The notes beneath the pieces were generated by a model, which made no database searches, was not told where the DNA came from, and saw nothing but the letters and a program-made list of their open reading frames with translations. From Ostreococcus lucimarinus (taxonomy: Eukaryota), in NCBI GenBank assembly GCA_000092065.1, contig CP000598.1: 64,000 bases of DNA. One strand, 5' to 3'. Below, in pieces: positions 881 through 27,354 of this stretch. Both the position numbers and the translations under genes were made by a program. Numbering within the stretch: the first letter of the stretch is position 1; each line of letters starts with the position of its first letter.

Positions 881-1240
881 ATGAAATCGGCGCGGACGTG
901 ATTCGGATGCGGTGGCGTTACGTTCTGTTCCGATCCGCGTGCGCACGCACTTTTGTCACGTACTCACGCACATTTGTGTGGCATGTGATTACTCATGTGT
1001 GAAAAAAACGTTCCGAACCGTTCCGCACGGTTGTTCGAGGGTCGTCATCGGCGGAGAACGACGACAAAATTAAGGGGTATAAAGATTAGCGAATATGTAA
1101 ATGTAAGGAGTAACCATGGGCTCCAACGTTAATCGCCTCGAAATGCTTTCCGTTATCGATGACTTGCATGAAAAGTATCAACATTTACACCATAAATCGA
1201 AGCTCTAAACCCTAAACATAGTTTTCGTTTTTTTTGCTCA

Positions 1241-1365
1241 GGTTTCGCCAGGCACGTGTCAAAAATTGGCAAATTCTGAAACTCGTTTTTTGCTAGGGTT
1301 TAGCTTTAACGTCTCCGAACGCTCCGACGGGGAGGCGATGACGCCGCCGCCACTCGTCGACGCCT
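1241..1365 (+). promoter_or_regulatory. Conserved upstream module, copy 1 of 4 ('..gtgtcaaaaa..ctgaaactcg.ttttgctagggtttagc..ccactcgtcgacg'). Contains a telo-box-like AAACCCTA/TAGGGTTT core. Lies about 470 bp 5' of the DUF285 giant gene ATG.
   Basis: Aligned by eye to 14921-15062, 18008-18176 and 19758-19930, all on the plus strand and all immediately 5' of a plus-strand gene. An inverted 'aaaccctaaac' sits at 1207-1217. Confidence 0.6.
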
Positions 1366-1838
1366 CCGTCCGCGGTCGTTCGCGTCGACATAGTTCAAGT
1401 GGTACCCTTGGACGACGGGCCCACCCGTGCGCACCCACGGGTGGGTGAAGTGCGTTTCCGTGGCGCGCCGTCGCCGTTCGGTCCTTCGCGGGCGACCGTA
1501 GCGCAACCGGGCGATCTCCGTGCGGGCGGCGCGACGCGACGCCGGTGCACGCATCGCAAGGGGCACACGCCGGGGGCACGGCGCCATTCGCGGCGAACGG
1601 TACGCCACCACACACGTTCGCAGCGGCGGACGGCATGCGTGGGCGGGTTGGAGGCAACGTTGTATTGAAAATTGCGTACAGCACTGTTGGGCAGACCGGC
1701 TCGTTGAAGCAGCATACGGATCTACGAGCGAAAGCATTTTCTCCGTCGAATATCATAGGGAAACAGCATGATAGATCAGTTGCACGGTCGAATCACAGTG
1801 CTCGAGCATCCTTCAGTTATCATACGTTGAAGGTGAAA

Positions 1839-4800
1839 ATGATTTTAACACTCGTATCCATCGCTATATCCATGGGAAATACACTTGCGAGTGGTAGCAT
1901 AGCGCTCACCGACGCAACGTTTTCTACTGCGATCGCTAGTTGCCTCGAGGAGGCAGCGTCGGATGGCCTGTGTACTTCTTACGGCTTTGCAAGTGGGTTC
2001 GGAGCGATGCCTGATTGGGACACGGGCAATGTCACGAACATGGGTAGTGCATTTTCGTCTAAATACTACTTCAATGCATCCATCGGGAACTGGAACACGT
2101 CGCGAGTGACGTATATGGGTTCCATGTTTCAGTCTGCGTATTCGTTTAATCAGGACATCGGGAACTGGAACACGTCGCAGGTGACGAACATGTATTCCAT
2201 GTTTCAGTCTGCGAATTCGTTTAATCAGGACATCGGGAACTGGAACACGGCGCGAGTGACGTATATGGGTTCCATGTTTCAGTATGCATCTTCGTTTGAT
2301 CAGGACATCGGGGGCTGGAACACGTCGCAGGTGACGAACATGTATTCCATGTTTCAGTATGCGTCTTCGTTTGATCAGGATATCGGGAACTGGAACACGT
2401 CGCGAGTGACGTATATGTATTCCATGTTTCAGGGCGCATCTGCGTTTGATCAGGACATCGGGGGCTGGAACACGTCGCGAGTGACCAATATGGGTTCCAT
2501 GTTTCAGTATGCATCTTCGTTTGATCAGGACATCACAAACTGGAACACGTCGCGAGTGACCAATATGGGTTCCATGTTTCAGTATGCATCTTCGTTTGAT
2601 CAGGACATCACAAACTGGAACACGGCGCGAGTAACGTACATGACCAACATTTTCCAAAACGCGACGGCGTTTCAGGCGAAATATACATGTTCGACCGTTC
2701 AATCTGGACCCATCGCATCGTGTTCGCAGTGCGTTGCAAACTGTGCCGCTTGTAGTAACACTGCGTCGGGTGTTTGTAGTGTTTGCATGACTGGGTACAC
2801 ATTAGACGGAGGAATGTGTGCGGCACCCGCTGCGGCGCTCACCGACGCAACGTTTTCTACTGCGATCGCTAGTTGCCTCGAGGAGGCAGCGTCGGATGGC
2901 CTGTGTACTTCTTACGGCTTTGCAAGTGGGTTCGGAGCGATGCCTGATTGGGACACGGGCAATGTCACGAACATGGGTAGTGCATTTTCGTCTAAATACT
3001 ACTTCAATGCATCCATCGGGAACTGGAACACGTCGCGAGTGACGTATATGGGTTCCATGTTTCAGTCTGCGTATTCGTTTAATCAGGACATCGGGAACTG
3101 GAACACGTCGCAGGTGACGAACATGTATTCCATGTTTCAGTCTGCGAATTCGTTTAATCAGGACATCGGGAACTGGAACACGGCGCGAGTGACGTATATG
3201 GGTTCCATGTTTCAGTATGCATCTTCGTTTGATCAGGACATCGGGGGCTGGAACACGTCGCAGGTGACGAACATGTATTCCATGTTTCAGTATGCGTCTT
3301 CGTTTGATCAGGATATCGGGAACTGGAACACGTCGCGAGTGACGTATATGTATTCCATGTTTCAGGGCGCATCTGCGTTTGATCAGGACATCGGGGGCTG
3401 GAACACGTCGCGAGTGACCAATATGGGTTCCATGTTTCAGTATGCATCTTCGTTTGATCAGGACATCACAAACTGGAACACGTCGCGAGTGACCAATATG
3501 GGTTCCATGTTTCAGTATGCATCTTCGTTTGATCAGGACATCACAAACTGGAACACGGCGCGAGTAACGTACATGACCAACATTTTCCAAAACGCGACGG
3601 CGTTTCAGGCGAAATATACATGTTCGACCGTTCAATCTGGACCCATCGCATCGTGTCGATCGGGGTCACCATTTCAGAATTCGACCGAGTTGAAGCTTGC
3701 GGTCGACAGCTGTTTACTCGCGGATCCAACAGGAAATTGTGATTGCAGAAGTTCTCTGGTCGACTGCCGGGCGGCGAGCGGCGATTCAATATCGAAATGG
3801 GATACACGCTTCGTAACGAATATGAGCTCCTTGTTTGCAGGATCAGATCAATTTAACGCAGATTTAGGTGCTTGGAACACAAGTGCCGTTACTTCGATGT
3901 CGCACATGTTTCATGGAGCCGCTGCGTTCAACAAAGACATTAGTGGTACGTATAATGCGAATATCTTCGCGTGGGACGTGAGCGGCGTGACGGACATGAC
4001 TCGAATGTTCGAAGGCGCTAATAGTTTCGCTCAGGACATCAGCTCGTGGAACGTGGTGAACGTCGCGAGCATGGACAGTATGTTTTCGGGCGCAAACGCG
4101 TTCAACGCGCCCATCGGCAGTTGGAACACAGACGGCGTGACAAACATGTTTCAGATGTTCCACTCAGCACATGTGTTCGATCAACCAATCGGAAGCTGGA
4201 ACACGGAACGGGTGACGAGCATGCAGTGCATGTTCATGTATGCGCGTGAATTCAATCAGGATATCAGCTCCTGGAACACGGTCAACGTGGTAAATATGTG
4301 GGATATGTTTAATAGTGCGGATGCGTTCAACCAGAACATTGGGTTATGGAACACAGAGGAGGTGACGGATATGAGATACATGTTCTATAACGCGGGTGCG
4401 TTCAACCAGCCCATAGGGTCGTGGAACACCGCCAATGTCACGACCATGCGATCTATGTTTCAGGGCGCATCTGCGTTTAATCAGGACATCGGAAACTGGA
4501 ACACGACTTCTGTCACGGACATGTACAGCATGTTTGGTAGCGCGACGGCGTTCAATCAGAACATCACGGGATGGCACACGCCGAATACTGGTATTACTTG
4601 CGATTCATCGCAAACGGCGTGTGGTGATACAGGGTGTTTTGACATCGGTAATTGTGCTGCTGCGATGTTTTCCGGTGCGACAGCTTGGTTAGCGAGGTAT
4701 GCTCGCATGGATGGGAATGCGTCGAGCACCGATGGACCTCCGTCTCAGTGGGTCGGCCCGACACCATTTTTGAGTCGAGACGCTTTAGTCGCGGCGGTTG

Positions 4801-7800
4801 ATAATTGCTTGACCGAGGACGAGACGGGAAGTTGCGATTGCTCTGATTACGACGTCGATTGTGGCGCCGCCGTAAAGCTGCCGATCACGGAATGGGACGT
4901 GAGCCTCATCGTGGATATGAACGAGCTATTTAAGGCTCGAGCAGCTTTCAATCAACCGGTTGGTGTTTGGAACACTAGTAGCGTGACGGATATGAGCGGC
5001 ATGTTTGAGAGCGCATCCGCGTTTAACCAGCCCGTTGGTAACTGGAACACGGGTAGTGTGACGGACATGAGCGGCATGTTTGAGAGCGCATCCGCGTTTA
5101 ACCAGCCCATTGGTAACTGGGCCACGGGCAGTGTGGCGGATATGAGCGGGATGTTTGAGAGCGCATCTGAATTCAATCAGAATATTAGTAGCTGGTCAGT
5201 CGCTTCTGTGGTGAACATGCAATCCATGTTTTCCTCTGCTTCATCCTTCGAGCAAGACATCACTGGATGGATTTCAACTAGTGTCACGACGGACATGGCG
5301 ACGGACATGTTTCTCTCTGCGACAGCTTGGCTGCGAACATTCGCACGCACAGATGGCGAAGACACCCCCCATGGTCCACCATCCGATTGGGGCGAACCGT
5401 GTGGCAATGGGTGGTACGATGAGAAAGTTCAGGGGGAGAAGGAGGATGACTTTTGTGAGCCAAAAGTGAACGGGATTGAAGTGAAAGGATGTGCAGATGA
5501 CTGCAAAGTAAAAACGAACTGGAAGTGCGACAATGTCGACTTGCTACGCCCCGGTGATGACTTCGACAGCTACAATTGTACGTGCGACAACCCGGTGGGC
5601 ACGTATGCATCACCTAATCTTGATAATGATTGTGCTCGCACAGATTGCGTTTATGTCGAACGGTGTCTCGCTAACGGCCTAGGCTGTGCGCCCGGTGCCG
5701 GTGGAATGTGGGACGTGGGACGTGGAACGTGGGACGCGGTGAACGCATGCGGCAAGTGCTTGAGGGCCGCTGATATTGCCGAGCTCCCACTCAACGAACG
5801 AAGTAGGCACAACAAGGCTGGCTATTACAAGACTGGGCAGACGTGCACGGCTTGTCCTGCGACATCAGCCGCGGGACTTTTCGCTGCGGCTGCGGTTGTC
5901 GTCGTCCTCGCTTTTTGTGGTTTCAAAGCCTCTCAATTGATGGGCGCTCAAGCGACGAACAATTTGAAGAAAATTGTCGAGTCGCTGCAGTTCTTCTCTC
6001 TTTCGCTCAGTATGAGTATCAAGTGGCCTGGGCCCGTACTCAATCTCGGTAAATATTTGGAAGCTTTCACGTTCAGCATTGAGTTTCTACGACCCCAATG
6101 CGTCGCTGCGGGGCTGGATTGGCTCAATATATTTTTGTCCTCGGTGTTTGTCGTTCCCGCTCTCATCTTCATAATCATCGTCGTGAACAATAGACGGGCG
6201 AGGCACCGTTACAAAACAACGGTGCGCGCGATCGACAGTGAACGACACGAGGATGGCGAAACGGTCTACTGGATCGAGAAACCAGGGTTCCTGTGGGGTA
6301 CGCGGAGAGCTTACGAGTCCAAGGGCGGAGATAAGATTGTTCGTGAGTTGCAGCGCCAGTATCGGTTTCGAGCCGCGCTTCGATCTTTCGGCGTACTGTC
6401 ACTGACCATCCTGTACCTTCCCATCGTGCGTATGTGCCTTCAGTCATACGATTGCATAAAGATAGACGGCGTGGATGGGCTTCGATTGGAGCATGACATA
6501 GATATCCTCTGTGAAAGCGAAGGGCACGTGATCATCCAGGCCGCCGCCGCGGTGATGTTGGCCATTGTCGGTATCGGCATGCCAATTTACGTCGTTATGC
6601 AAGTTCGTAAGATCCGTTTGAGTGGTAAACTGGATGATCCGCAGACTATCGACTCGTATGGTCCGTTCTACGACGTCTACCGGCGCGAGGAGCTCACACA
6701 TGATCACAAATTGGAGATTGCGAGGATTCGACAAACCGCGGTCGAGTCGTCCTCATTTCGACGAGGCGAAGGCACGAGCGACGAACGTCCTTTCGATGCA
6801 GCAACTGATGATATTGCAGAAGAAATCGCAAATGAAGTCAGGGTCGACACGGAAGAAGATTCAAGCGACGTCGATCGTGTTGACGTCGAGGACGATAGTG
6901 GCACTCCACCACCTCAGAAAGTTTCATCCGGTCTCGGTAAGCTCGCTCGGGCGTTAACGATGACGAAGTCTGCTTTAGGCCGGACGACGTCAGCGAAAGC
7001 GCGCGAACGGGCACATCGAATGCACTGGAAGGACAGGTTCGCGCTTCACTACCTGGCCGTTGAACTAGTGCAGAAGAGTTGCGTCATTTTGACGACGTCT
7101 CCGATAGTGGCCGAAACCGCGGTGAGCGGTTGGGCTCTGGTTGTCGTACACTGGTTTACCGGCGCCTTCGTCTACGTGTGTCAGCCTTGGCGCATCATGA
7201 CGCTCGGCTTCGGCAAATACAAGGTGCGAAATTGCTTGAACAAAGTCGAGTCCTTGGCTGGATTTTTGCAGGGCGTGGGACCGTTCTTGGCAATGATCTT
7301 CCCTGTTCAGAGAAACGAGTTCGGTGAGGTGAAGCAAACTGTGACACTCTCAGCCATAACTGTCCTGCTGACCATCATAATCACCGGGCTGCTTTCTATT
7401 CGTATCATTGTTTTCGTCGGCGAACGCGTCGCCGTCAAACGAAAGAAGATGGATATCGACAAGGATCCCGAGAAATGCATGCAAAATGTTCACAAACAAC
7501 TGGTCAAGCTCGCAACCAACAGAGCGATTGTGAGCATGTTTGCTTTCAAGGCAGATTTCGACATTAAGCGCCGTAAAGCACGCGCGAGGCTGGAAGATAC
7601 TCGCCAAGCGATGTTATCGCGCATCGATATCTTGAAGTCACAACAGACCGACGAGGACCATTCCGATAAAATTACCGCGTTGTACGAAGTGGCGAATGAA
7701 ATGGCACACATCGTGAATACGATCGTACCCCAAGCACCGCCAACAGGTCCAAACGCAGAAGGGTGTATCGAATTGCTGGATGAACAACTGGCATCAATTC

Positions 7801-9368
7801 TCAAGGACGTCGACGTCCGAGCGCAGGCGAACGCGTTAGACGCTCCGAATTCTGCGGCGGTACATATCGTGATGAAGGTCCACGCGTTCGATACAATCAT
7901 ATGTCGACTTGACGAACATTTGCTCGAATTCGCGGCGGCAGAACGTGTGAGTGAGCTCGCCGAGCTGGGTCGAAGACACGCTGAATTACGACATACGCGA
8001 CGTTGTGTCGCGATAGGTTTCGGCGACGCAGAGCTTCGAGCTACTTTCGATGCGCTAAGATCGTGCATCGAGGCACTCCGCCATGCCGTTGAGAACGACG
8101 ACTTCGAAGCTGTATTCACAACTTTCAATGGTGGGAAGGAGATCATTGATTCTCACTTACGATGGTGTCGGGATCAATGTGAATTGTTCAAGAGCGCCGA
8201 GGACGAGCACCCCGATTTCCTCGAGGACGAGCCTCCACTGACGACCGAGTTTTTCAAGGCGACAGTCAAGGTGATACAATCCCATGAAAAGCAACTGTCT
8301 AAATTTAAATCGGAATGTATTCGTAACTGGCCCCCGCTTTTCAAGAACTTTGGCCGCGTCAAGTACATACAAGGCTTTGCTGAGCAACTTCAGAATCAAC
8401 TCCATCTCGATCTCAATGAAAGCACGCCGGAGGAGGCCAAGGCTGTTTTCGATCAGGTGTTGGCCTTCACAGATGGCTTCGCGCTTTGGTGCGGCGATTT
8501 AGTGGCACAGGTCGAAGGCTCAGATGTCTTCATCTTGTTTGAGCCAATCGCCCGCGCGATGGTGGAAAGCTTGAAAGCCATCAGAGCAGACGCTGAGTCG
8601 CAAAGTGCACTCGCGAGGCAAGCATTGAGTACGATAGATTATGTGGTGACGCAACGGGCGTTGGCCGCAACGACGCGGTCGGGCTTGCAGACAGCACTCG
8701 CGGATGGTACGTCTGCGCTTGAAGACCAGCTCGCCGCAGAAATTGCAGACATGGACGCTGCGAAGATTTCTCGAGAGACTACTTTCGAGACCGAAAAGAT
8801 GCGCACCGAGGAAGCTTTGAATACATTAGAGCAAGAGTTGGACGGTAGGCGAGCGGTTTTAGAGGACGACATTCGATCGCAACAGGACACTATCGCGCGG
8901 CTACAAAACTTGAAACGGGAAGAGGCCGCGGCATCGAGCTCTATAAACCCGTTGAAATGGGAGCGTTTCAGTCGAAGCACTGAGCTCGCCGAAGCTGTAA
9001 GTGCACTCCGTATGAGCAAACAAAACTTGAAGAATGAAGAGCTTGCAAATGAGAAGGCCCGCGGGGATGCGCGTAAGGCGGTTCATTCGTTGGAACGGGG
9101 CCTGAAAAAGGACCTGGTCGAATGTGACGTCCGAGCAAAGAAAATCCGAGACGATGTGGCAAAGGAGCTGAAGAAACAAACTATGGATGCTCAGAGGAAG
9201 ACACCCGAAGATGCTAAAGCCCATAAGGCTAGTCTGGCTTCCAGGCGCGCGGTGTTCCAGCAACAACGCGCCGCCGCTAAACTCATCGCGAGCGAAAGTA
9301 GAGAAGCTACGCGAATTCAAGCACAGCTTGCATACTACATGCGAAATTTAAAGGCGCGCGAATCGTGA
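1839..9368 (+). CDS. Giant DUF285-repeat membrane protein. Signal peptide [13 protein letters not shown], then over 30 copies of the '[23 protein letters not shown]' unit (DUF285/PF03382-like), Cys-rich EGF-like linkers, several predicted TM helices (about aa 1430-1950 of the ORF), and a long alpha-helical/coiled-coil C-terminal domain.
   Basis: 7.8-kb uninterrupted ORF. The ORF-track start at 1545 is GC-rich, in-frame upstream sequence; the first ATG followed by a hydrophobic signal peptide is at 1839. The repeated N[WT]NTS.VT.M..MF motif is read directly. The C-terminal domain ([14 protein letters not shown]...[13 protein letters not shown]) is paralogous to ORF 20822..21832. Confidence 0.8.
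1902..3656 (+). repeat. Perfect intragenic tandem duplication. 822-bp unit at 1902-2723 is repeated at 2835-3656 (offset 933 bp = 311 codons), separated by a 111-bp Cys-rich linker.
   Basis: Minus-strand shadow ORFs 1845..2702 and 2802..3635 have identical 270-aa translations. The plus protein repeats '[22 protein letters not shown]...[14 protein letters not shown]' twice. Confidence 0.85.
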
Positions 9369-10018: not shown

Positions 10019-10227
10019 TAGTAAGAGTAATAAAAATAAACTTTTTTTTGTTTGAGTTGGGGCACCCCAACATGATAAAACCGCACATCGCGGCGAGCCG
10101 CGCGACGACGATCACTTCGGTCACATTTCCAGTCAGTGATTCTCGTCGTGTGATTCATCGTGTTTGACGTCGACGTTGATGTACCACATGTAAGATCTCT
10201 TCAGAACCAATCGTGTGAGTGAAGTGT

Positions 10228-10725
10228 TCAGGCCAAGTCGCGTAACTCATCTAGCGTAAATTGATACTTGTCGAGACTGCGCTTTGAAGGCAGCGTGCCA
10301 CGCGCTCGAGCATTCTTGAGGCACGTCTTACGCAGTATTCTTTTCGCGTGCTGCTTGTAATAATTGAGTTGTCTGTAGTTACCATCGCCGCCGTCACGCT
10401 TCGGCGTATATTGGGCTCTGCTGTAGGCTTGACTCTCGTCCACGTTCTCGTGACACGCGTGTTTCTGGCTGCGTCCAGCAGCTCGGGAGTTGAATAAGCC
10501 GTCGCGCTTCTCTCTCATGTATGCACTTTTACGTTGATGGAGCTCTCCAGCTGGAATGTCCTTTTCGAGAACTCTCACGTCCGCGTCGCCAAACGTGAAG
10601 ATTGGATGTCGTGCGTATTTATGCGAGGCAAGGCGCGCTCTGAGCGAACCTGTCGTCGATCCGATGTACGTTTTGTCACATTTCGCATTATCGCTAAACA
10701 TTTCGTACACGCACCCCGTAGGCAT
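10228..10725 (-). CDS. GIY-YIG family endonuclease (165 aa).
   Basis: N-terminal 'GCVYEMF...(11 aa)...TYIGSTTGSLRARLASH' fits the GIY-(10-11)-YIG spacing with the conserved Arg. A downstream acidic/Asn region follows. Identical copy at 22162..22659. Confidence 0.7.
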   Translation of the reverse strand: MPTGCVYEMFSDNAKCDKTYIGSTTGSLRARLASHKYARHPIFTFGDADVRVLEKDIPAGELHQRKSAYMREKRDGLFNSRAAGRSQKHACHENVDESQAYSRAQYTPKRDGGDGNYRQLNYYKQHAKRILRKTCLKNARARGTLPSKRSLDKYQFTLDELRDLA

Positions 10726-11150
10726 TTGTCCTGGTTACCTATCCATCCCTAAGAAAATATTGTTGCCTCCTCCTGCGGTTTGCAGTCACATTCGAGAGAC
10801 CATAGGTACTCGTGTCGCTGCGTGGGGTGCAAGGTCCGGGGTGTAGATATCGAACCGCCTGATTTCACACCTGGACGTTCGTGATCCGACGAGACCTGAC
10901 GAAATGACGAACTTGTTTTGTCGTCCCCAAATTCGTCAGCCCGTCGTTCGGTCACACTTTGTGTGTACCAATGATGAAAATGACGAAATGTTAAAATATT
11001 TTAATGTTTATTTTTATTTTAGATCTATGACAAGCAACAGTGTAGACCTTTATGAAAACAGTTCGTCATTCGTCATTTCGTCAGGATCCAAACCATGGTC
11101 TTTTCGGTGTCTTGTTGAGTCTTCATATTGCAAATGTACGAATCACAAAA

Positions 11151-11726
11151 TTAGTATGAACACCAGACGACCGCCGGCGCGAGCTCCGTCTCCCCCGTGT
11201 ACCCATTGTTCTTCAGCCACTCGAAGCACCCGTCGCGGTCAATTTCCCAATAGACGCCCTTCTCGTCCCTACCTTGCCTCAGGTGGTCCTCTTCCATTGG
11301 GATCCTGTGGCCCTTTTCCTTCTTGAAGAAGTCCTTGAGCTTATTGCCGACCTTCGTCGCGCTATCTTGTCCACGCGCAGCCGCTGGCAACCACGTCTGG
11401 TATTCGATGAAGATGTCACTGTTGCGGATTTTATTTCCAACCCACTTCTCAGGGAATTCAACAGTGACGCAATGCTCAAACCATCGAGTGAACTTGGGCA
11501 TGCAGCCACGCTTCATTTCCGAATACGCGTCGGTCGTAGGTCTCGTGCGCTCCACATGATAACCGGTACGGAGAAGTTTATATTTATTAATTAAAGACTC
11601 GCGCGTGTTGGCGCTAAATGATTTTATTGCTGCCGAGAGACTCAAGTTTGGCCGTCGTTTGAGTCGCATCGATGGGTCGCGCCCGCCGATATAACGCCGG
11701 CGTTTCGGACACGATCTTGAAAACAA
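11151..11726 (-). CDS. Hypothetical protein (191 aa), part of the duplicated block.
   Basis: Compositionally normal ORF, identical (1 substitution) at 23093..23668. No family recognised. Confidence 0.45.
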   Translation of the reverse strand: MFSRSCPKRRRYIGGRDPSMRLKRRPNLSLSAAIKSFSANTRESLINKYKLLRTGYHVERTRPTTDAYSEMKRGCMPKFTRWFEHCVTVEFPEKWVGNKIRNSDIFIEYQTWLPAAARGQDSATKVGNKLKDFFKKEKGHRIPMEEDHLRQGRDEKGVYWEIDRDGCFEWLKNNGYTGETELAPAVVWCSY

Positions 11727-11746
11727 GCACTGGTTGACTTGATTGA

Positions 11747-14272
11747 TTAGGAAACCTTATCCGTGCCTTTTACGCTGAGCCCGGTCATGGACGGCTTCGT
11801 CGGCATGGTGAACGCGGTGTAGTCCGCCGCCGTGGGCACCGTGATGCTCGTGTCGTACGACATCCCGGAGCACGCCGACGCATCGGCGGGAGCAAGCATT
11901 TCGACACCACTTTCGAGTTTCAAGACGTACCGGTCGCCAGTCGATGGTTGTTTGAACGTGGTGCCATCGGGGATCAGGACATCCGGACGGCGATGGTAAC
12001 CATTGTTGTCGTCGCACTCCTCGTTGCCATACTGGTCGACCTCGGGCGCCGCGCGCGAACCAGTCATCGGATTGAAGCAAATGAACGGCGCGTCGCCCAA
12101 CCAACCGCCTTCGTAACGCACGTTGAGATTCACCCCGGAGTAGTCGGTACCGGATGGAGAGCGCAGCAACACGGCGTCCGTGGGTATCTTGCCTTGAAGC
12201 TGGAGAGGCGCATCCATGAACTTCTTTGACGCGGAGTCCGAAGGATCTTCGAGCCACGCCATGCCCTCCCAATTGCTTGAGCTCCACTCGTAGTGCACAT
12301 CCAATTTGTTGGGTTCCTCGCAAACGTCGGTAGTGGCGGTGCAACTCAAAGTGTCGAGGTTCGCAGGTGTAGCTTCGAAGAGAACCATATGAACTTCTCC
12401 CGAGTCAAAGAATGAGTTGGTTGGGTCCATTACGACTTCAGCGCCGAGGGTGCCGGAAACGTCTTCCTTCAACGAGCCGGTATCTTTGTCGAAGACGTAC
12501 TTTTTATAAGTGCTTCGAGCGTCGTTGTATCCGTTCGGCGAGCCGTAGAACTGGCTGTCGTGACTGCTCGCACTCGATAGCTTCGTCTGGTCGATACACC
12601 GCTCGCCGCACGTGAGTGCGAGGTGGCTGCTGAGCGACCCAGGGGGGACGGTTTGCGCGTCAGACACTTTGAAGTGCGTCAGGTTAAGCAAACTCGCAGA
12701 GCCTCGGCCGAAGATGCTTCCCCAGCAGCGTATGATTTGGTTGTCAATGTCAGCCATCGTGAGCGCACGCGGAGTCGTGATTGAGTTCGTGTTCAGCGAT
12801 CCACCGTTCCAAGTTCGCTTCGACGACAACACGAGTGCGTTCGCGTCGGAGTCATACCTGAACTTGACCTCAACTTCTGCAGCGTTAGTGTCATCCCAGA
12901 ACCAGCCTGTGATCGTCGCCCCTTGGTAGTCGCTTGCGCTTCGCACCGTCGCCGTGAACTTGTACAACACCCCGCGTGAGACTTTGAGCCTCTTGTTCAC
13001 GTTCAGTATCGGATCATCCCAATCGACAATTTCCTCTACTACGTTCCCGTCGGTGAACGCGGTTTGAGCGATAGTCTTCTCGGCGGTACTGAGCGCGGTG
13101 TCGGAAATGTAGTCGTAATCGGAAATGTAGAGATTGCCCGGATAGTGCAGATCAGCATTATACGTCTTGCCGTCGCTGCCTGTAGCCTGAAGATGCACGT
13201 AGCTTTGAAGGTTCACCTTCGCCCCGTTGCTGTCGTACGCGCCGTAGCGCTCACCGAAGAACGATCTGTTCTCGAGTTCATCGCAGAATGACTGCCCGTA
13301 CGCCTTCGTCTTGACGAGCGTAGCGGTAGTCACCAATTGACCCGCTTGTGTCGAACCATTATCAAAGTCGATGGTCTGGAAAGAGGCCTTCGTGATGTCG
13401 TTTTCTGCGCGCGATTTAGCACCCGCGGTGAATGAATTGCTGCCTCGTGTCACCTCTTCCCACCACGTGACCCCGGTCGCCGTGCAATCCGAATCCGCGT
13501 CGGTGGTTTCGCACTCGCGACGAACCACACCTTTGATGCGTTGGGACGCGGTCGAGCCAGTCGGCGATTGGTACGTAAAGGTAAAGTTTTTCACCAAGAT
13601 TTTGTCAGACTTGATGGCGACGTCATCGCGCTTGACGATCATTTCCGTGTCGATGTTCGGCATTTCTGGGGTATCGCTGAGGGCTACCCAGACGTTCGTC
13701 TTGAAATCACGGGTATCGCTCGCGTCGTCGATGTCTGGGCCCGTGGCGTTGACGACCCAACGGTACGTAACCTTACCCTTGATTCGGTCGCCGTCGCTGT
13801 TGTCACAGTGGAAAGGATCGATCTCAGCGATGTATGGGCCAGTGTTCAGGTTCGCCGTCCAGTTCACCGAGGCGACGTAGCAAAGAACCATGTTTGGTAT
13901 CTGGAAAATTTCGGTACTTACAGCGTCGACGAACGTCTCCGCCGGCGGCGCCGTGGCGTAGTCGGACGTCGAAGAGAACGAAGACACTTCGAGAGGCGTC
14001 ACCTCGACGAGCGAACGACCATCGATTCGAGACGAACCAGAAGACGTCGTCGAAACACCCTCTGACGGGATCATGGTGACTTTACGCGGCGTCAACGCCG
14101 CCTTGAGCGCGTTCGTCTTCGCCGCGCCCGACAGCCCGCTGACGGTGGTCGGGGTCGGGGCCGGGGCCGGGGTCGCGTCGTCATCCCTGAGCCCGATGCC
14201 GAGGCCGGTGCCAAGGGCGACCACCACGGCGGCGACACCAACGATCGCGATCGCAACGCCACGTCTCACCAT
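11747..14272 (-). CDS. Secreted or membrane-anchored hypothetical protein (841 aa). N-terminal hydrophobic anchor MVRRGVAIAIVGVAAVVVALGTGLGIG, PAPAPTPT linker, large Thr/Ser/Asp-rich beta-type ectodomain with scattered Cys.
   Basis: Long uninterrupted ORF. Duplicated at 23689..26220 (843 aa; extra PA in the linker). Stop is 21 bp upstream of the start of the 191-aa ORF. Confidence 0.6.
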   Translation of the reverse strand: MVRRGVAIAIVGVAAVVVALGTGLGIGLRDDDATPAPAPTPTTVSGLSGAAKTNALKAALTPRKVTMIPSEGVSTTSSGSSRIDGRSLVEVTPLEVSSFSSTSDYATAPPAETFVDAVSTEIFQIPNMVLCYVASVNWTANLNTGPYIAEIDPFHCDNSDGDRIKGKVTYRWVVNATGPDIDDASDTRDFKTNVWVALSDTPEMPNIDTEMIVKRDDVAIKSDKILVKNFTFTYQSPTGSTASQRIKGVVRRECETTDADSDCTATGVTWWEEVTRGSNSFTAGAKSRAENDITKASFQTIDFDNGSTQAGQLVTTATLVKTKAYGQSFCDELENRSFFGERYGAYDSNGAKVNLQSYVHLQATGSDGKTYNADLHYPGNLYISDYDYISDTALSTAEKTIAQTAFTDGNVVEEIVDWDDPILNVNKRLKVSRGVLYKFTATVRSASDYQGATITGWFWDDTNAAEVEVKFRYDSDANALVLSSKRTWNGGSLNTNSITTPRALTMADIDNQIIRCWGSIFGRGSASLLNLTHFKVSDAQTVPPGSLSSHLALTCGERCIDQTKLSSASSHDSQFYGSPNGYNDARSTYKKYVFDKDTGSLKEDVSGTLGAEVVMDPTNSFFDSGEVHMVLFEATPANLDTLSCTATTDVCEEPNKLDVHYEWSSSNWEGMAWLEDPSDSASKKFMDAPLQLQGKIPTDAVLLRSPSGTDYSGVNLNVRYEGGWLGDAPFICFNPMTGSRAAPEVDQYGNEECDDNNGYHRRPDVLIPDGTTFKQPSTGDRYVLKLESGVEMLAPADASACSGMSYDTSITVPTAADYTAFTMPTKPSMTGLSVKGTDKVS

Positions 14273-14404
14273 CGTCGCGCGTTGAAATGCGGCGACGACA
14301 AGTGGCGACGGTGACGCGATCTGCCCGCACGCAATTCAATTCCTTCGGGTCACCTTATCTTTTGGAGCCCCCGGAAACGCGACTGTTTACCAATACGATG
14401 GTTC

Positions 14405-14665
14405 CCGGGTATTGATTACTGGGCCTGTTGGCGCCCCGCGGGTGTGTGTGTGCCAGCCCGTAGGGTTTAAGGTTTAGGATCCGAAATATGGAGCCTCGCT
14501 ATTAAGCCGGGGATCCTCCGCGGGCACGCGCCCCCGCGGGCGTGTGTGTTTTCGCGGTCGGTCGGACGGGAAGCCTGTTGGCGCCCCACGGGTTTGTGTG
14601 TCGGTCCTTAGCGTTTGGGGTTTAGTATCGGACATACGGAGCCTCACTATTTAGCGGTATGACCA
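14405..14665. repeat. Tandem about 150-bp repeats containing degenerate TTTAGGG-type telomere-like units ('ggtttaggatc', 'gggtttaaggtttagg') and 'gcctgttggcgccccgcgggt'. Related array at 17465-17640.
   Basis: Two successive units can be aligned by eye (14420-14530 vs 14570-14660). Shares 'ggcgccccgcgggtttgtgtg..agggtttagg..atcggacatatggagcctcac' with 17520-17640. Confidence 0.65.
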
Positions 14666-14685
14666 CATATATTAATTGATTTATA

Positions 14686-15062: not shown

Positions 15063-15065
15063 ACC

Positions 15066-16181
15066 ATGGCCTCCCCGTCGCTCGATGCCGTGCGTTGGAG
15101 CGAATACCGGGCGCTCATGCAAGCGTGGGAAGCGTTTAACCCACACAGGGAGCTCCTGCGTCGGTTTTTACAGAAGCAATCGCACACGGAGCAGTGCCCA
15201 CCCGGCGTCCCGTACGTACCAGATCTGCCGGAGCCGGAGTACTTCGCCGTGAAGAGACGAATCGAGGCCGGGGAAACCGTTCCATGTCCTGGATTCTTAC
15301 GCGAACGCGACAACCGGCGCAATCAATGCCGCTGCGGGGCTCCACTCAGAGTTGATGACACTGGCAATATCTCCTGCACTTCCAAAATTCCCCGTCATGA
15401 GAACTATGGTCCTGTACCTCGTTGCTGTTGCTGGGCCGAAGAAGAGCACGCTCGTAACCAACGACATGACATGCCGCCGTATATTTTAAGGCCGCCACCC
15501 ATAGTGTCCCCCCCTCAAGTACCACCGTCGTCTCAAGTGCTCTTGAGCTTTTTGGAGGGGGTCAGGCCAAGCATGAACGCCAACTACCTGCGATGCGTTC
15601 AAGACATAGACGAAGAGCTCGCTCGTCTGAATGAGCAGCTTGCGGACAACAGCATTTCAACGACGAGGCGTGAAGCGATTCAACAGCATATAGTGAGCGA
15701 ACGCTCCAAACTTGAGGCCAAAGACACACAGTTACAAGATTTTTTTAACACGACGACCGCACTGGCAGAATCCGTGCACACGTTCGAGCACAGAGTGGCA
15801 GAGAAATACCAGAAAGCTGTGGATGCATACATTAAAGCGCAACTGGATGAAGTGGTCGTACCTCCGGATAGTAGAGGGAATCCAAAGTTTAAGGACTCAG
15901 TCGATGGCATCGACAGAGAGTTGGCCAAGTTAGAATCAGAAAATGGAGGCATCTCCAACGACAGCGCTCGCGCTCGCGTCGCCTCCAAACGTAAGAGCGT
16001 GGAAGAGTGTGAATCAGAGCACAAGCGCCTCAAAACCACTTCGGTTGAGTACAACTTGTCTATTTTGAAAGGGAGTTTGGAAAAAGACAAATCTATGTCT
16101 GCTGAAGACAAAAGACGCTGGGAATGCGTCATAAACGCCGTCGGGTTGTTACGAGCAAACGATGCACCAAGAACGCCGTAG
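15066..16181 (+). CDS. Coiled-coil protein (371 aa); paralog of 18177..19220.
   Basis: Shared segment 'LNEQLADNSISTTRREAIQQHIVSERSKLEAKDTQLQ' vs 'LEAQLQDENISETRRSVIPQHIEDTRAKLKEQDNSLN'. Heptad-rich, Glu/Lys/Arg-rich. Confidence 0.6.
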   Translation: MASPSLDAVRWSEYRALMQAWEAFNPHRELLRRFLQKQSHTEQCPPGVPYVPDLPEPEYFAVKRRIEAGETVPCPGFLRERDNRRNQCRCGAPLRVDDTGNISCTSKIPRHENYGPVPRCCCWAEEEHARNQRHDMPPYILRPPPIVSPPQVPPSSQVLLSFLEGVRPSMNANYLRCVQDIDEELARLNEQLADNSISTTRREAIQQHIVSERSKLEAKDTQLQDFFNTTTALAESVHTFEHRVAEKYQKAVDAYIKAQLDEVVVPPDSRGNPKFKDSVDGIDRELAKLESENGGISNDSARARVASKRKSVEECESEHKRLKTTSVEYNLSILKGSLEKDKSMSAEDKRRWECVINAVGLLRANDAPRTP

Positions 16182-17890: not shown

Positions 17891-18007
17891 TCTTTGGGTC
17901 ACAGCCCCTCACTTTGGGGGCTGCAGTGACGGGATGTGGGAATTTTACCGTATGGGTCGTGACTCGTCGTTGGGGGTACTACTATGAAATCCCATAATTC
18001 TATTGTA

Positions 18008-19946: not shown

Positions 19947-21832
19947 ATGGCAAAGGTGAAGATAATGCTAATATTGTCGATGGTGTTGATACTGCGCATG
20001 CCGAGCGCACTCGCAGGCGCACTCACACACGCACTCCTCCGTGTGGGTGGTCCACGTGTAAGGCAAGCTGTCGAAAAAGGGATGAAACAAGGCATTATGG
20101 ATTCGTTTCCAGGAGGCGTCCAGGACCTCCTCGCATACTTGCACCGCCACAGAGAGGACGAAATCAAACAGGAGTTTGGGTGCATGGCGCTCATGATCAT
20201 GTGCCGGGAAAACACTGAGAACAGACGCATCGCCGGAGAGCAGGGCGCGATCCAGGCCGTCGTGAACGCCTTGAACCGCCACAGAGAGAACAAGGAAGTG
20301 CAGAGGGACGGACACATGGCGCTCGTGATCATGTGCGAGGACAACACCGAGAACAGACGCATCGCCGGAGAGCAGGGCGCGATCCAGGCCGTCGTGGACG
20401 CCTTGAACCGCCACAGAGGGAACAGGGAAGTGCAGAGGGACGGACAACTGGCGCTCGCGATCATGTGCAAGGACAACACTGAGAACAGACGCATCGCCGG
20501 AGAGCAGGGCGCGATCCAGACCGTCGTGGACGCCTTGAACCGCCACAGAGGGAACAGGGAAGTGCAGAGGGACGGACAACTGGCGCTCGCGATCATGTGC
20601 AAGGACAACACTGAGAACAGACGCATCGCCGGAGAGCAGGGCGCGATCCAGACCGTCGTGGACGCCTTGAACCGCCACAGAGGGAACAAGGAAGTCCAGG
20701 CGAACGGGCACATGGCGCTCGCGAGCATGTGCATTAACAACACTGAGAACAGACGCATCGTAGACGCGTATGGGCAAACAGTTAGTTATTCTCCACAGCC
20801 TCCATTCGCGCGACCAGAGCGTTGAAGGACAGCGGGCGCAGTGATGATGCGCAAATAAACGCACTGTACGCGATTGCAAACGAGATGGCGCACGCTGTGA
20901 ACATGATCTCGATTCAAGGTGTCGCTGAAGGCCCGGGCGTTGAAGAACGAGTAAAACACACACAAGATTTCCTACAGCAACTTTTGTCGGACGTCGACAT
21001 CAAACTTGAGATCGAAGAAAAGCAAAACGCCGAGGCTCTGCGTGTGGTATTGCGAGTGCACGCGTATGGTCGTGCCATGAAAATTATCGAGGATCACATG
21101 CTAGAATATGCGCGCGCTGAACAAGTGGAGGAGCTGGCCGTGCTCGGACAAGAATCTGCGGCACTGTTAGAAGAACAAAACCTCCTTTCCATGGGTTTTG
21201 GCGTCAAGGAGCTGAATATGTCGATACTGGCAATCGACGCGGAGCATTTCACTGTGCACCTAGAGAAAGCTACTTCCCTGGACGAAGTCGGCAGTGCTGT
21301 GGCCATTCTCAACGCCGTCAATTCCATTGCAGTCCGTCATCTCGAGTGGAGAGATGCGAGCGTTGCAACTTTTAGCCACCTTGAAACCGAAGAGTCCATT
21401 GGTATTGAAGTCAAAATCAACAGGGACGTACTATATTCTGCTGCGATGCTTCTGAAAGATCACGAATCCCAGCTGAACCAAGAACTGGCGAGGCGCGCGC
21501 GCGAATGGAAGCTTCTGTTTAAGAATTTTGGAAAAGTGAAATTCAACCAGACGCTTGAAGAAATGGTTCAGGTGGAGCTCACCTCGCCTGAAGGCGCGGA
21601 CGCTGATTTAACACGCCGTGCTAAAAAATTTGTGGATTGGTGCGTGGAATCTTCACAGCAGCTGAGCCGAGGGGAGTTTAACCAGCGTCTTCCTGGGATT
21701 ACGGAAACGGCATATATCAGCCTAAAATCCCTCGCACAGAAGTCTGCCAGTTCGCTCGTTAAGATCGCACAAAAAACAGCTGCATCGAGGCGTAGCAAAA
21801 CAAAGACGTCAATATTCGGGTTTGCGCGCTAA
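19947..21832 (+). CDS. Armadillo-type repeat protein. Five or more tandem 40-aa units 'NRRIAGEQGAIQAVVDALNRHRGNREVQRDGQLALAIMCKDNTE', then a C-terminal domain paralogous to the C-terminus of the DUF285 giant. The reading frame breaks near 20770-20825, at a junction with a dispersed repeat; possibly a pseudogene or unresolved splice.
   Basis: Track ORFs 19893..20825 and 20822..21832 are in frames +1 apart. No GT..AG interval of plausible size restores the frame (checked candidates are 39, 31 and 26 nt). The junction sequence 'tatgggcaaacagttag..tctcca..gcctccattcgcgcgaccagagcgttga' recurs at 16185-16250. Confidence 0.45.
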
Positions 21833-22161
21833 ATCCGCCAACCGAACGCCAGAATTGTTATGTTACGCTCGATGATAACATGGTTGGGTTGGGGCAAATG
21901 CCCACAAATCAGCGTCAGGCGAAGGAAGACAGGTGCGTCTGCAAATTCCAAATTCTCGGCAGAACAAGTTCGTCGACTGGAAGAGCTCGGCCGGTTTGGA
22001 GACAAACCCGCCATATTGGAAGAGCACTTCGCTGCCTGAGGGTACAGAAGATGTAGCTAATCAGAAGCGTGCGACCGTTAAGACCTTGGGGATTCGACTC
22101 GCTTAAGATTTCGGCACCCTCGCTTAAGATTTCTCCAGAACGAATCGTGTGAGTGAAGTGG

Positions 22162-22659
22162 TCAAGCCAAGCCACGCAACTCATCTACCGTAAATTGATA
22201 CTTGTCGAGACTGCGCTTCGAAGGCAGCGTGCCGCGCGCTCGAGCATTCTTGAGGCACGTCTTACGCAGTATTCTTTTCGCTTGCTGCTTGTAATAACTG
22301 AGTTGTCTGTAGTTACCATCGCCGCCGACCCGCTTCGGCGTATATTGAGCTCTGCTGTAGGCCGGACTCCCGTCCACGTTCTCGTGGCACGCGTGTTTCT
22401 GGCTGCGTCCAGCAACTCGGGAGTTGAATAAGCCGTCGCGCTTCTCTCTCATGTAGGCACTTTTACGTTGATGGAGCTCTCCAGCTGGAATGTCCTTTTC
22501 GAGAACTCTCACGTCCGCGTCGCCAAACTTGAAGATTGGATGTCGTGCGTATTTATGCGAGGCAAGGCGCGCTCTGAGCGAACCTGTCGTCGATCCGATG
22601 TACGTCTTGTTACATTTCGCATTATCGCTAAACATTTCGTACACGCATCCCGACGGCAT
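22162..22659 (-). CDS. GIY-YIG family endonuclease, second copy.
   Basis: Near-identical to 10228..10725, with a few substitutions (for example D/N, T/K). Confidence 0.7.
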   Translation of the reverse strand: MPSGCVYEMFSDNAKCNKTYIGSTTGSLRARLASHKYARHPIFKFGDADVRVLEKDIPAGELHQRKSAYMREKRDGLFNSRVAGRSQKHACHENVDGSPAYSRAQYTPKRVGGDGNYRQLSYYKQQAKRILRKTCLKNARARGTLPSKRSLDKYQFTVDELRGLA

Positions 22660-23092
22660 TTGTCCTGATTACCTATCCATCCCTAAGAAAATATTGTTGC
22701 CAAAAGTGCTCCTCCTGTGGTTTGCAGTCACATTCGAGAGACCATAGGTACTCGTGTCGCTGCGTGGGGTGCAAGGTCCGGGGTGTAGATATCGAACCGC
22801 CTGATTTCACACCTGGACGTTCGTGATCCGACGAGACCTGACGAAATGACGAACTTGTTTTGTCGTCCCCAAATTCGTCAGCCCGTCGTTCGGTCACACT
22901 TTGTGTGTACCAATGATGAAAATGACGAAATGTTAAAATATTTTAATGTTTATTTTTATTTTAGATCTATGACAAGCAACAGTGTAGACCTTTATGAAAA
23001 CAGTTCGTCATTCGTCATTTCGTCAGGATCCAAACCATGGTCTTTTCGGTGTCTTGTTGAGTCTTCATATTGCAAATGTACGAATCACAAAA

Positions 23093-23668
23093 TTAGTATG
23101 AACACCAGACGACCGCCGGCGCGAGCTCCGTCTCCCCCGTGTACCCATTGTTCTTCAGCCACTCGAAGCACCCGTCGCGGTCAATTTCCCAATAGACGCC
23201 CTTCTCGTCCCTACCTTGCCTCAGGTGGTCCTCTTCCATTGGGATCCTGTGGCCCTTTTCCTTCTTGAAGAAGTCCTTGAGCTTATTGCCGACCTTCGTC
23301 GCGCTATCTTGGCCACGCGCAGCCGCTGGCAACCACGCCTGGTATTCGATGAAGATGTCACTGTTGCGGATTTTATTTCCAACCCACTTCTCAGGGAATT
23401 CAACAGTGACGCAATGCTCAAACCATCGAGTGAACTTGGGCATGCATCCACGCTTCATTTCCGAATACGCGTCGGTCGTAGGTCTCGTGCGCTCCACATG
23501 ATAACCGGTACGGAGAAGTTTATATTTATTAATTAAAGACTCGCGCGTGTTGGCGCTAAATGATTTTATTGCTGCCGAGAGACTCAAGTTTGGCCGTCGT
23601 TTGAGTCGCATCGATGGGTCGCGCCCGCCGATATAACGCCGGCGTTTCGGACACGATCTTGAAAACAA
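23093..23668 (-). CDS. Hypothetical protein (191 aa), second copy.
   Basis: Identical to 11151..11726 except T/A at one residue. Confidence 0.45.
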   Translation of the reverse strand: MFSRSCPKRRRYIGGRDPSMRLKRRPNLSLSAAIKSFSANTRESLINKYKLLRTGYHVERTRPTTDAYSEMKRGCMPKFTRWFEHCVTVEFPEKWVGNKIRNSDIFIEYQAWLPAAARGQDSATKVGNKLKDFFKKEKGHRIPMEEDHLRQGRDEKGVYWEIDRDGCFEWLKNNGYTGETELAPAVVWCSY

Positions 23669-23688
23669 GCACTGGTTGACTTGATTGA

Positions 23689-26220: not shown

Positions 26221-27354
26221 CGTCGCGCGTTGAAATGCGGCGACGACAAGTGGCGACGGTGACGCGATCTGCCCGCACGCAATTCAATTCCTTCGGGTCA
26301 CCTTATCTTTTGGAGCCCCGGAGATGCGACTGTTTACCAATACGATGGTTCCCTTTTTTCGGTCGCGAAAGCGCGCGGTCGCCGGGTCAACCAACACCTT
26401 CATCTCCGGGGGGGATCGGAGATTGTTTTTTACGGTCGCGCGCGCGGTCGCCGCGGACGCCCCCGCCCTCGTCGACGCCGCGCTGACTGTCGCGCGCTGA
26501 CTGACACGCGCTGACCGACGCGCGCGCGATCGAACGCCGCGAGTGGGGAAAGGCGAACGCGCGACGTCGTCGCGCGCGCCCCCGCGCGTCCCGGACCGAA
26601 CCGCGCGTCGTCGTCGTCGCCGTCGCCGTCGCGCGCGTACGCTTCGGACCGCGAAAATCGTTTTTCGTCGCGGGGGGACTGCGGTGCGGGTCGTCTCACA
26701 CTTCGGGACGCCGACGATGGTGTCGTCCGGCGACGCCGACGTCGACGACGCGGTCGAACGACGCCATCGGCGCGGTCGCGGTCGCGCCGTTCGCGATCTT
26801 CTGCCGTCGTCCTCGGCGGCGCGCGCGAACACCGTCCCGCCGTTTGAAGCAACCGGTCGAGGCGCGCTCCCGAGGTGGTTTTGCAAGAGCTGTCGGAAAG
26901 CGCTCGACGTGTTTCGTGATTTCGACGGGGAGCTGAAGACGTGTCGACTGTGTTTGCGCGCGCGCAAGAAAGACGCGAAACGCAAACGCGCGCTACGGCG
27001 GGCGGACGCGAAAAGGTCGGGCGACGGCGACGGTAAAAAAGGCGCGGCTTCGTAGAGAAGCCGAACGCAGGGAACGACGACGAGTCGCGGATGCGCGCGA
27101 AACGATCGATCTTTGATTCGACACGCCTTCGGTATAGTAGTGTGTTTTGCTCTGTAGCCTCGCGTGTTGTAACTACCGTTGTACATTTACATCAATGCGT
27201 CGTCGCGTTCGCGGCGATTTTACGTCGTCGTTCGTTCGCGACGCTTCGTTGGACATGGCGCTTCGACACAGAAGAATCCGACGCGCGCACAGTCCGTGGT
27301 GTCGCGCGCACGTCATCGCACACGTCTCATTTCTTATTTCTCCGCTCCAACTCG

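Follow-up and report, generated by a model that had tools for sequence, protein, structure and literature searches.

A giant DUF285-repeat gene with a variable module array, and a second copy of its tail domain, in Ostreococcus lucimarinus

We studied a stretch of 64,000 nucleotides (nt) of Ostreococcus lucimarinus DNA (contig CP000598.1 of assembly GCA_000092065.1; in the following the window), which carries a giant gene for a DUF285-repeat protein on its + strand. A scan of the 64-kb window for open reading frames (ORFs) yields an uninterrupted + strand ORF at 1545..9368. As gene start we take the ATG at 1839, i.e., the start that is also found in orthologues such as P0283 (P and L numbers denote matched proteins and contigs, respectively). 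The resulting gene (1839..9368) comprises 2509 codons plus stop in an unbroken frame, which agrees with the product of about 2500 amino acids (aa) expected from the initial annotation of this locus; both P0283 and P0285 have the same start and end. For the transmembrane (TM) plus tail region, the ratio of nonsynonymous to synonymous divergence (dN/dS) is 0.27-0.30 over 1182 codons when three alleles are compared. Given the uninterrupted ORF and this ratio, the gene is intact and its core is under purifying selection.

All features of the giant lie on the + strand. It opens with a hydrophobic N-terminal leader (aa 1-21, 1839..1901), read from the sequence as a putative signal peptide and conserved in P0283 and P0285, and continues with four DUF285 modules. 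Module 1 (aa 22-295, 1902..2723) consists of an N-cap, 9 units of 25 aa and a C-cap. A Cys-rich linker of 37 aa (aa 296-332, 2724..2834), which recurs after each non-terminal module in P0283 and P0285, leads to module 2 (aa 333-606, 2835..3656). Module 3 (aa 607-974, 3657..4760) has its own cap, about 10 units and a Cys-containing C-cap; module 4 (aa 975-1187, 4761..5399) again has its own cap, followed by 5 units, and holds a 75-bp array at 4968-5195 according to Tandem Repeats Finder (TRF). Behind the modules follow a Cys-rich juxtamembrane stalk (CGNGWYD..., aa 1188-1343, 5400..5867), which is conserved family-wide in the alignment consensus and modeled with low confidence by AlphaFold2 (AF2), a multi-pass membrane block with 7-9 predicted helices (aa ~1344-1865, 5868..7433), a conserved helical tail domain (aa 1938-2290, 7650..8708), and finally a charged, Ala-rich and helical C-terminal extension of 219 aa (aa 2291-2509, 8709..9365) that is coiled-coil-like by composition only.

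The identity of the repeats is clear from all profile collections used. In the Pfam search, PF03382 (DUF285) reaches 1097.7 bits over 12 stretches (cut-off 25), and within NCBIfam both TIGR02167 ('PARCEL repeat-containing surface protein', 506.5 bits vs. cut-off 30) and NF045896 (712 bits vs. cut-off 500) are matched. A motif count gives 31 (strict) to 35 (relaxed) units with an exact spacing of 25 aa, and the period of 75 nt was found by both repeat finders. The ectodomain of DUF285 proteins of the BspA type, i.e., with leucine-rich repeats (LRRs), would fold as a right-handed repeat beta-solenoid, a fold taken from the literature (bioRxiv 10.1101/2024.06.08.598090). For the tail domain, AF2 predicts an all-helical fold (predicted local distance difference test, pLDDT, 89.3). 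The AF2 model of stalk and TM block, built with 23 homologues, has a pLDDT of 63.8 and a predicted template modeling score (pTM) of 0.59; it shows a helical core with local values of 70-89, small beta hairpins between the helices and a disordered acidic loop at aa ~1640-1720. Thus, the layout proposed initially, that is, over 30 DUF285 units (with Pfam named as a check) stacked on a multi-TM region and a long helical tail, holds in terms of motif count, profile scores far above the cut-off, hydropathy and AF2 models. Sequence and profile searches against the PDB returned nothing beyond coiled-coil noise. The ectodomain contains 28 N-X-S/T sequons and 42 Cys, and the tail contains a single sequon. 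From sequence, this distribution fits a glycosylated extracellular ectodomain combined with a cytoplasmic tail.

The central observation concerns the module array. In a self-BLASTN comparison, the segments 1902-2723 and 2835-3656 are identical at 822/822 positions, i.e., module 2 is base-identical to module 1. The copies are spaced by 933 bp, which corresponds to 311 codons and thus keeps the frame. The identical stretch is the central part of an in-frame tandem array with 1.9 copies, in which module and 37-aa Cys linker together make up one unit and the period is 933 bp. Other alleles carry this array in different states. The window allele (strain CCE9901, 2509 aa) has 2 x 9 units, with its own modules at 100% (822/822 nt). 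P0285 (2874 aa; L008, JGI 3300047157) has 3 x 7 units with a period of 795 bp and 99.86% DNA identity over 1480 bp. P0283 (2905 aa; L009, ENA ERZ28548058) has modules with 5, 7 and 8 units, and its three copies are 92-95% identical on the amino-acid and 92-93% on the DNA level. The L001 allele has three modules, too. That is, the N-terminal modules occur in 2 or 3 copies with 5-9 units each among alleles, and module 4 likewise varies between 5 units (window), 6 units (P0273) and at least 11 units (P0285 and P0303).

We also compared module divergence within and between alleles. Amino-acid identity of modules is 92-100% within an allele vs. 73-86% between alleles. Synonymous divergence (dS) between alleles is 0.4-0.9 in the N-terminal modules, a range that is perhaps partly inflated by out-of-register alignment of repeat units, but only 0.02 for module 3 (compared with L008) and 0.0-0.15 over stalk, TM block and tail (0.06 in the TM+tail region). 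Along the giant gene, synonymous divergence therefore forms a mosaic profile between alleles. Larger exchanges are visible as well: in P0283, a LamG-like insert partly replaces the module 3 block, and P0003 (L002) combines a core of 92% identity with different ectodomain segments. Since module copies are alike within an allele, diverged between alleles and variable in number, the comparison indicates that unequal crossing-over and/or gene conversion has shaped the module array of a gene that is itself a mosaic. Either process, acting inside the array, would homogenize the modules within each allele, while the exchange of ectodomain segments between alleles or paralogues would produce the recombination mosaic. 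The initial annotation had reported the perfect 822-bp duplication, had taken it as a sign of ongoing repeat expansion or gene conversion and had suggested to compare repeat numbers between strains; both the duplication and this reading are supported by the BLASTN result and the allele series. We consider the gene a clean natural case of concerted evolution of a higher-order repeat within coding sequence, for which the allele series (2 x 9, 3 x 7 and 5/7/8 units) is already present in public assemblies.

PARCEL (= DUF285) repeats were defined by Roeske et al. 2010 (PMC2996958), where the 'P' stands for the palindromic nucleotide organization of the repeat coding sequence. For O. lucimarinus chromosome 18, the same study gives a count of one PARCEL ORF, and Figure 1B of that study shows XP_001422294.1 as an example of repeated domain blocks with spacer regions. 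This accession directly precedes XP_001422295.1, which is the ORF at 15066..16181 of the window; XP_001422294.1 is thus very probably the giant gene, which would then have been pictured as a block-repeat example already in 2010. NCBI uses the name 'BspA family leucine-rich repeat surface protein' for such proteins, which abound in Mollicutes, marine bacteria, diatoms, pelagophytes, Mamiellales and some giant viruses. The giant shares with them the tandem units of 25 residues, the N-terminal leader, the membrane association, the spaced blocks and the plasticity in copy number. It differs in that its repeats sit on a eukaryotic stalk, a multi-pass TM block and a helical cytoplasmic tail, whereas the anchor elsewhere is a lipoprotein or a single TM helix, and in its higher-order repeat of a capped module with 7-9 units and a Cys linker, which shows concerted evolution across alleles unlike PARCEL/DUF285 elsewhere.

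Next, the chromosomal setting. Ten ORFs of the window match proteins of O. lucimarinus CCE9901 exactly, all of them on one record of 149,386 bp; among these are ABP00612 (ORF 15066..16181), ABP00660 (an FkbM methyltransferase ORF) and ABP00661 (a GT17 ORF). Yau et al. 2016 (PMC5082852) list chromosome 18, with a size of 150 kb, as the small outlier chromosome (SOC) of this species. Because of the exact matches on a record of 149,386 bp and the published SOC status of chromosome 18, we assign the window to chromosome 18, i.e., the SOC, of CCE9901. Lowered GC content and an enrichment in carbohydrate-modifying and methyltransferase genes, both SOC traits, are found here: the region 38000-64000 has a GC content of 46-53% and encodes two FkbM methyltransferases, a GT17 and a STELLO-like glycosyltransferase, a nucleotide-sugar transporter, two GDP-mannose-dehydratase-like proteins and a UDP-glucose dehydrogenase. 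Further window genes encode a BCCT transporter, a DNA methyltransferase with CXXC and Tudor domains, and a Myb protein. A giant-virus or bacterial origin of the window is ruled out by the eukaryotic gene content and the exact O. lucimarinus matches.

Hypervariability, duplications, deletions, accordion-like tandem repeats and inter-chromosomal translocations are documented for Mamiellales SOCs (PMC5082852, PMC13390643). The giant gene resembles the SOC 'accordion' of O. tauri and O. mediterraneus in chromosome type and in the strain-variable number of tandem units (ibid.). Described accordions have units of about 1.8-2 kb with ORFs without known domains, whereas that of the giant runs in frame within one surface-protein gene, has a unit of 795-933 bp and alters the ectodomain. 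Beyond the array, the locus shares with SOCs elsewhere the duplications, deletions, truncated genes and inter-chromosomal copies as well as a neighborhood rich in glycosyltransferases and methyltransferases. The duplication, the truncation and the copy on another chromosome, which are presented in the following, fit this documented behavior.

The tail domain of the giant (aa 1938-2287) reappears in the ORF 20822..21832 with 29% identity over 354 aa (E=3e-36), so that the recurrence reported initially is backed by alignment statistics. The region of interest is 20823..21832 (+ strand), which holds a tail-only 3' part of a second DUF285-stalk-TM-tail paralogue and is annotated by NCBI as a separate protein (XP_001422298.1, 'predicted protein, partial', = ABP00615). 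From exactly position 20823 on, the window matches contig L003 with 96.5% identity; before this position the two are unrelated. The L003 protein P0031 has a tail with 98% amino-acid identity, preceded by the last three membrane helices of the family (TM5-7) and not by armadillo (ARM) repeats. P0335 (1367 aa) and P0331, both in the same 90% cluster, are complete DUF285-stalk-TM-tail proteins that end in the short tail. Between the tail remnant and L003 we count 6 nonsynonymous and 3 synonymous differences, compatible with relaxed constraint but too few to decide.

Both tail copies are followed, about 0.8 kb further on, by a 4.2-kb segment on the - strand, located at 10191..14406 downstream of the giant and at 22125..26353 downstream of the tail remnant; the two copies are 98.8% identical. 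Each holds a 165-aa GIY-YIG-like ORF (10228..10725 and 22162..22659, - strand; exact matches to ABP00649 and ABP00653). The first copy also includes 191 aa left over from a D5-type primase-helicase gene (11151..11726, - strand; weak PHROG primase match, E=0.026) and an 841-aa type-II membrane ORF (11747..14272, - strand; = ABP00650), whose counterpart in the second copy has 843 aa (ABP00655). A separate observation is that the short-read contig L003 stops at 22127, the edge of the second copy, which suggests that the 4.2-kb segment is repeated in the genome of L003 as well. Other strains carry at the same site complete D5_N, DUF5906 and Prim-Pol primase-helicase genes as well as an ankyrin gene in variable order and orientation; respective primase-helicase loci lie next to the giant at 16097-18298 in L001, 17117-24140 in L008 and 11172-14248 in L009. 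Judged from these sequences, this points to a virus-like or mobile element that is decaying at the 11151-11726 site. The 841-aa ORF was also considered as the equivalent of the D5 primase-helicase of L001, to which it has no similarity; rather, another gene has here taken the place of most of the helicase gene.

Copies of this region also exist elsewhere in the genome. XP_001421295.1 (P0323, 555 aa), located on a 708,927-bp chromosome of O. lucimarinus, shares 96% identity with the C-terminal 555 aa of the giant, and a further copy of the 165-aa ORF (ABO99767, XP_001421474.1) lies on the same chromosome. This suggests that the 3' end of the giant and its neighbor may have been copied between chromosomes. 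The 165-aa ORF shows by eye the motif VYE..YIGST..R..H and carries the UniRef label 'GIY-YIG domain-containing'; it may be a mobile endonuclease gene, and nuclease-driven mobilization of a tail-plus-cassette unit is possible. That is, a GIY-YIG-type endonuclease gene would spread the tail and the downstream cassette via homing-like breaks with co-conversion of the flanks. Such a process would explain why a 165-aa ORF is found after each tail, why the segment is 98.8% identical while the tails share 29%, and why a 96% identical fragment exists on another chromosome. Its 90% cluster has 898 members, the additional copy shares its chromosome with P0323, and in L001 and L009, too, the ORF is found behind the giant. 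On the other hand, neither Pfam, PHROGs nor NCBIfam report a GIY-YIG match for the 165-aa ORF, the segment is inverted and 7 kb distant in L008, and general SOC instability yields the same pattern without a dedicated nuclease (PMC13390643). We thus regard homing as conceivable but unlikely, and keep to general SOC rearrangement as the explanation of the duplicated segment.

To delimit the family beyond the repeats, we consider the C-terminal 1222 aa of the giant, for which a search returned relatives from metagenomic or uncultured sources only. These comprise near-identical alleles (90-98% identity) and a further set with 37-56% identity, all of which have stalk, TM block and tail. Many of the latter are without DUF285 and show other N-termini instead (e.g., P0012, P0015, P0018); the homologues that have the core in common but lack the repeats lie at 45-56% identity. 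A profile search among 1.84 billion representatives gave 192 matches with E<=1e-3, of which 26 reach E<=1e-30. Based on these comparisons, we read stalk, TM block and tail as the conserved core of an uncharacterized family with an exchangeable ectodomain; we call it small because of the only 26 strong matches among 1.84 billion. No viral relatives of the TM-tail core were found in IMG/VR. The genomic context of one member with 45% identity includes CBM53 starch synthases, which fits green-lineage picoalgae.

Two side observations on database coverage belong here. P0331 (NCBI MAK25117.1, 1187 aa), a member of the cluster of the second paralogue, is deposited as 'MAG: hypothetical protein [Acidimicrobiaceae bacterium]', i.e., as part of a metagenome-assembled genome (MAG). 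Its sequence indicates an Ostreococcus-type DUF285-TM-tail gene and thus eukaryotic contamination of a bacterial MAG, such that public MAGs labeled as bacterial carry fragments of this algal DUF285-stalk-TM-tail family. Furthermore, three independent short-read contigs (L005, L006, L007, which carry P0011) all end within the ~0.8 kb that precede the stalk of a family member. Variable or repetitive ectodomains thus seem to break metagenome assemblies routinely, such that respective N-termini would be systematically missing from databases.

The membrane block itself raises the question of a channel. The weaker profile matches cover only positions ~1-255 of the family profile (TM1, a 'WPGP' segment and TM2) and concern proteins of large size whose ectodomains are of the Ephrin_rec_like, Kelch, FG-GAP, TIG or CUB type. 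In fungal Pkd2/Flc proteins, an ectodomain is followed by about 9 TM helices and a cytoplasmic coiled coil, and the giant resembles this layout overall. The block could therefore be read as a distant TRP-like cation channel (PF06011, Flc/Pkd2-type), which would turn the giant into a channel or mechanosensor with an LRR ectodomain rather than a passive adhesin. This would be in line with the weak matches at positions 1-255 to large protist surface proteins with Ephrin_rec_like modules, with one such weak relative (P0405) that reaches PF06011 at 29.4 bits (cut-off 28.5), and with the family member P0022, which matches PF06011 with E=0.005. But P0022 is the best family member and scores only 16.1 bits, well under the cut-off, the window protein itself has no PF06011 match at the gathering threshold of 28.5 bits or below, and the chain of similarity is transitive and as short as ~60-70 residues. 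That is, the giant and PF06011 proteins agree in their general layout, with an ectodomain of large size, several helices in the membrane and a helical or coiled-coil tail in the cytoplasm, and show a weak transitive similarity between hidden Markov models; the giant differs in that it does not reach the Pfam threshold, has no structural match and carries an unrelated ectodomain, such that only a resemblance is left. We hold a TRP-like channel to be quite improbable and keep such a relationship as a weak lead only.

Directly upstream of the second tail, an ARM-like repeat ORF of 292 aa is found at 19947..20825 (+ strand). Its Pfam matches are of the ARM type (PF00514 with 25.9 vs. cut-off 20.6, PF23744 with 34.9 vs. 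26.2, PF22964 with 36.7 vs. 27), and TRF reports for 20183-20760 a young array of 4.4 copies of a 132-bp unit (44 aa) with 91-95% identity. As a side note, the ORF starts with an odd hydrophobic N-terminus (MAKVKIMLILSMVLILRMPSALAG). The initial annotation had viewed the tail as fused to the armadillo repeats and had taken this as domain shuffling within the locus. However, the ARM ORF is in frame 0 and the tail ORF in frame 2, both overlap by 4 nt, and the ARM stop codon TGA (20823-20825) coincides with the first three bases of the paralogue-homologous block, while other strains hold the same tail in a normal paralogue (P0031, P0335). Neither the fusion nor the shuffling is therefore borne out. 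Since the homology begins abruptly at 20823 and the ARM ORF is out of frame, the second tail is the remnant of a truncated paralogue at a rearrangement junction and not a demonstrated fusion. Here, an SOC rearrangement truncated the second paralogue and set the ARM ORF out of frame against its 3' end; both the supposed ARM-tail fusion and the 'partial' XP_001422298.1 are products of a rearrangement.

A functional chimeric gene could still arise by splicing. A 50-nt GT..AG interval (20768-20817), if used as an intron, restores the frame exactly (joining ..NRRIVDA to ALKDSGRSDD..) and would yield an ARM-tail protein of 611 aa; the tail ORF is still open over 336 codons, and the ARM gene has the common TAGGGTTTAG upstream module described below. 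Yet a search with the hypothetical spliced product found no ARM-tail protein among 5.8 billion clustered proteins, and the sole close match has TM helices in front of the tail. In addition, the public annotation lists the tail as a partial protein of its own, the ARM array is broken at 20760 and followed by about 60 nt of unrelated sequence up to the junction, and the 6 nonsynonymous and 3 synonymous differences to L003 are compatible with relaxed constraint. Overall, we find the chimera distinctly unlikely and prefer the truncated remnant.

That the 822-bp duplication is an assembly artefact of a gene with a single module is extremely improbable, because the [module+linker]n-module layout recurs with three copies in independent assemblies of other alleles (one of them with 99.86% DNA identity), and also given that the duplication is in frame (311 codons) and that assemblers usually collapse rather than create perfect repeats, even if zero differences over 822 bp are what a read mis-join would give, the exact duplication junction has 0 matches in JGI metagenome contigs, and the protein collection contains no near-identical N-terminus (best match <=55% identity). 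Moreover, the CCE9901 genome was presumably Sanger-sequenced and finished.

Taken as a whole, we consider it likely that the locus harbors an intact giant surface-protein gene of the SOC with a remodeled ectodomain, accompanied by a second tail that is the remnant of a truncated paralogue. Several points weigh against this account. The TM model is of medium confidence (pLDDT 63.8), and the helix count, set against the positive-inside rule, gives neither a unique nor a self-consistent topology. Both signal peptide and topology rest on a reading of the sequence. The orthologue in L001 has several frame breaks in the module region, which could be long-read errors or real pseudogenization in that strain. 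Finally, the exact product of 2509 aa is absent from the protein collection searched, and the possible inflation of dS in the N-terminal modules (see above) has to be added. Repeat family, public genome and hypervariable chromosome are already known. New are an allele series in which a higher-order module evolves in concert, a dS profile that forms a mosaic, a family that is defined by its conserved stalk, TM block and tail and whose ectodomains are exchangeable, and the finding that a truncated paralogue accounts for the supposed 'ARM-tail fusion'.

What could such a protein do? The LRR-like solenoid modules would bind something outside the cell, and the membrane block with its helical tail would anchor, oligomerize or signal. 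That is, the membrane block would connect a variable LRR-like face with a helical scaffold in the cytoplasm, and the giant is probably a glycosylated cell-surface molecule for recognition, adhesion or sensing. LRR-type surface and receptor families are known to diversify by unequal crossing-over and gene conversion, e.g., the BspA-like proteins of Trichomonas and Bacteroides or the LRR receptor-like genes of plants. The giant resembles these families in its solenoid repeat ectodomain, its repeat-number polymorphism, its mosaic alleles and its conserved anchor; in contrast to them, it is anchored by multiple membrane passes with a large helical tail and belongs to a family that is both small and restricted.

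Given the location on the SOC and the proposed role of this chromosome in virus resistance, interaction with viruses or grazers would be a reasonable driver of the variability. In line with what has been suggested for SOCs in general, the ectodomain may plausibly have diversified through its interactions with viruses, grazers or other cells. Light, cold and nitrate elicit responses of DUF285 genes in other algae, so that a role in environmental sensing is equally conceivable for the giant. If the functional assignment is true, the giant is a protein-level candidate for how the SOC alters the cell surface, which has so far been discussed mainly via glycosyltransferases. A far stronger version, in which the family is an unrecognized class of algal surface receptor or channel that couples an LRR-like ectodomain to a TRP-like block and a helical scaffold in the cytoplasm, and its SOC member would directly determine prasinovirus attachment or immunity, appears very improbable to us; if true, populations would gain receptor variants through ectodomain swapping and through the accordion of in-frame modules. 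In either case, the defined membrane family could be tagged or knocked out in Ostreococcus, which is a transformable host.

Upstream of the giant, a module with telobox-like TAGGGTTTAG motifs lies at 1200..1340 (+ strand), identified by 9 exact TAGGGTTTAG copies (0.01 expected) and an alignment of four upstream regions. Respective modules of ~130 bp are located at 1200-1340, 14940-15066, 17990-18177 and 19740-19947, that is, in front of four + strand genes (the giant, ORF 15066, ORF 18177 and the ARM ORF). From its position, we infer a putative promoter or 5' leader. For the giant, some 500 bp that include a GC-rich insert separate the module from the ATG downstream. In L001 and L008, a 15066-type gene with its own TAGGGTTTAG module replaces the upstream sequence of the giant; in L008 this gene is placed directly upstream of the giant, i.e., gene order varies among strains. 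A telomeric or subtelomeric reading of CCCTAAA near 1203 was rejected, as it is a single degenerate match and the motif belongs to the common upstream module.

Some further features of the window are of minor relevance here. The ORFs 15066-16181 and 18177-19220 are paralogous coiled-coil ORFs with the common motif NYLR.V..ID...L..QL.D..IS.TRR, and the second one has an RGG tract that derives from a 9-bp tandem repeat (18917-18969). The DNA methyltransferase gene is an 880-aa ORF at 34624-37266 that combines a C-5 cytosine DNA methylase domain with mono-CXXC and Tudor domains and is located within a 65% GC island. Neither tRNAs nor Rfam matches are present in the window, and no inverted repeats of >=150 nt were detected within it, a length range that does not cover the short intra-unit palindromes of PARCEL. 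Within the glycan cluster, 57820-58187 is repeated at 61458-61825 (97.6%), and 55862-56076 resembles 61243-61464. Short intergenic repeats link 9684-10023 with 16376-16706 (92.6%), 14507-14724 with 17481-17700 (76.5%) and 19507-19740 with 62006-62239 (73%); these dispersed repeats may be substrates or scars of rearrangements.

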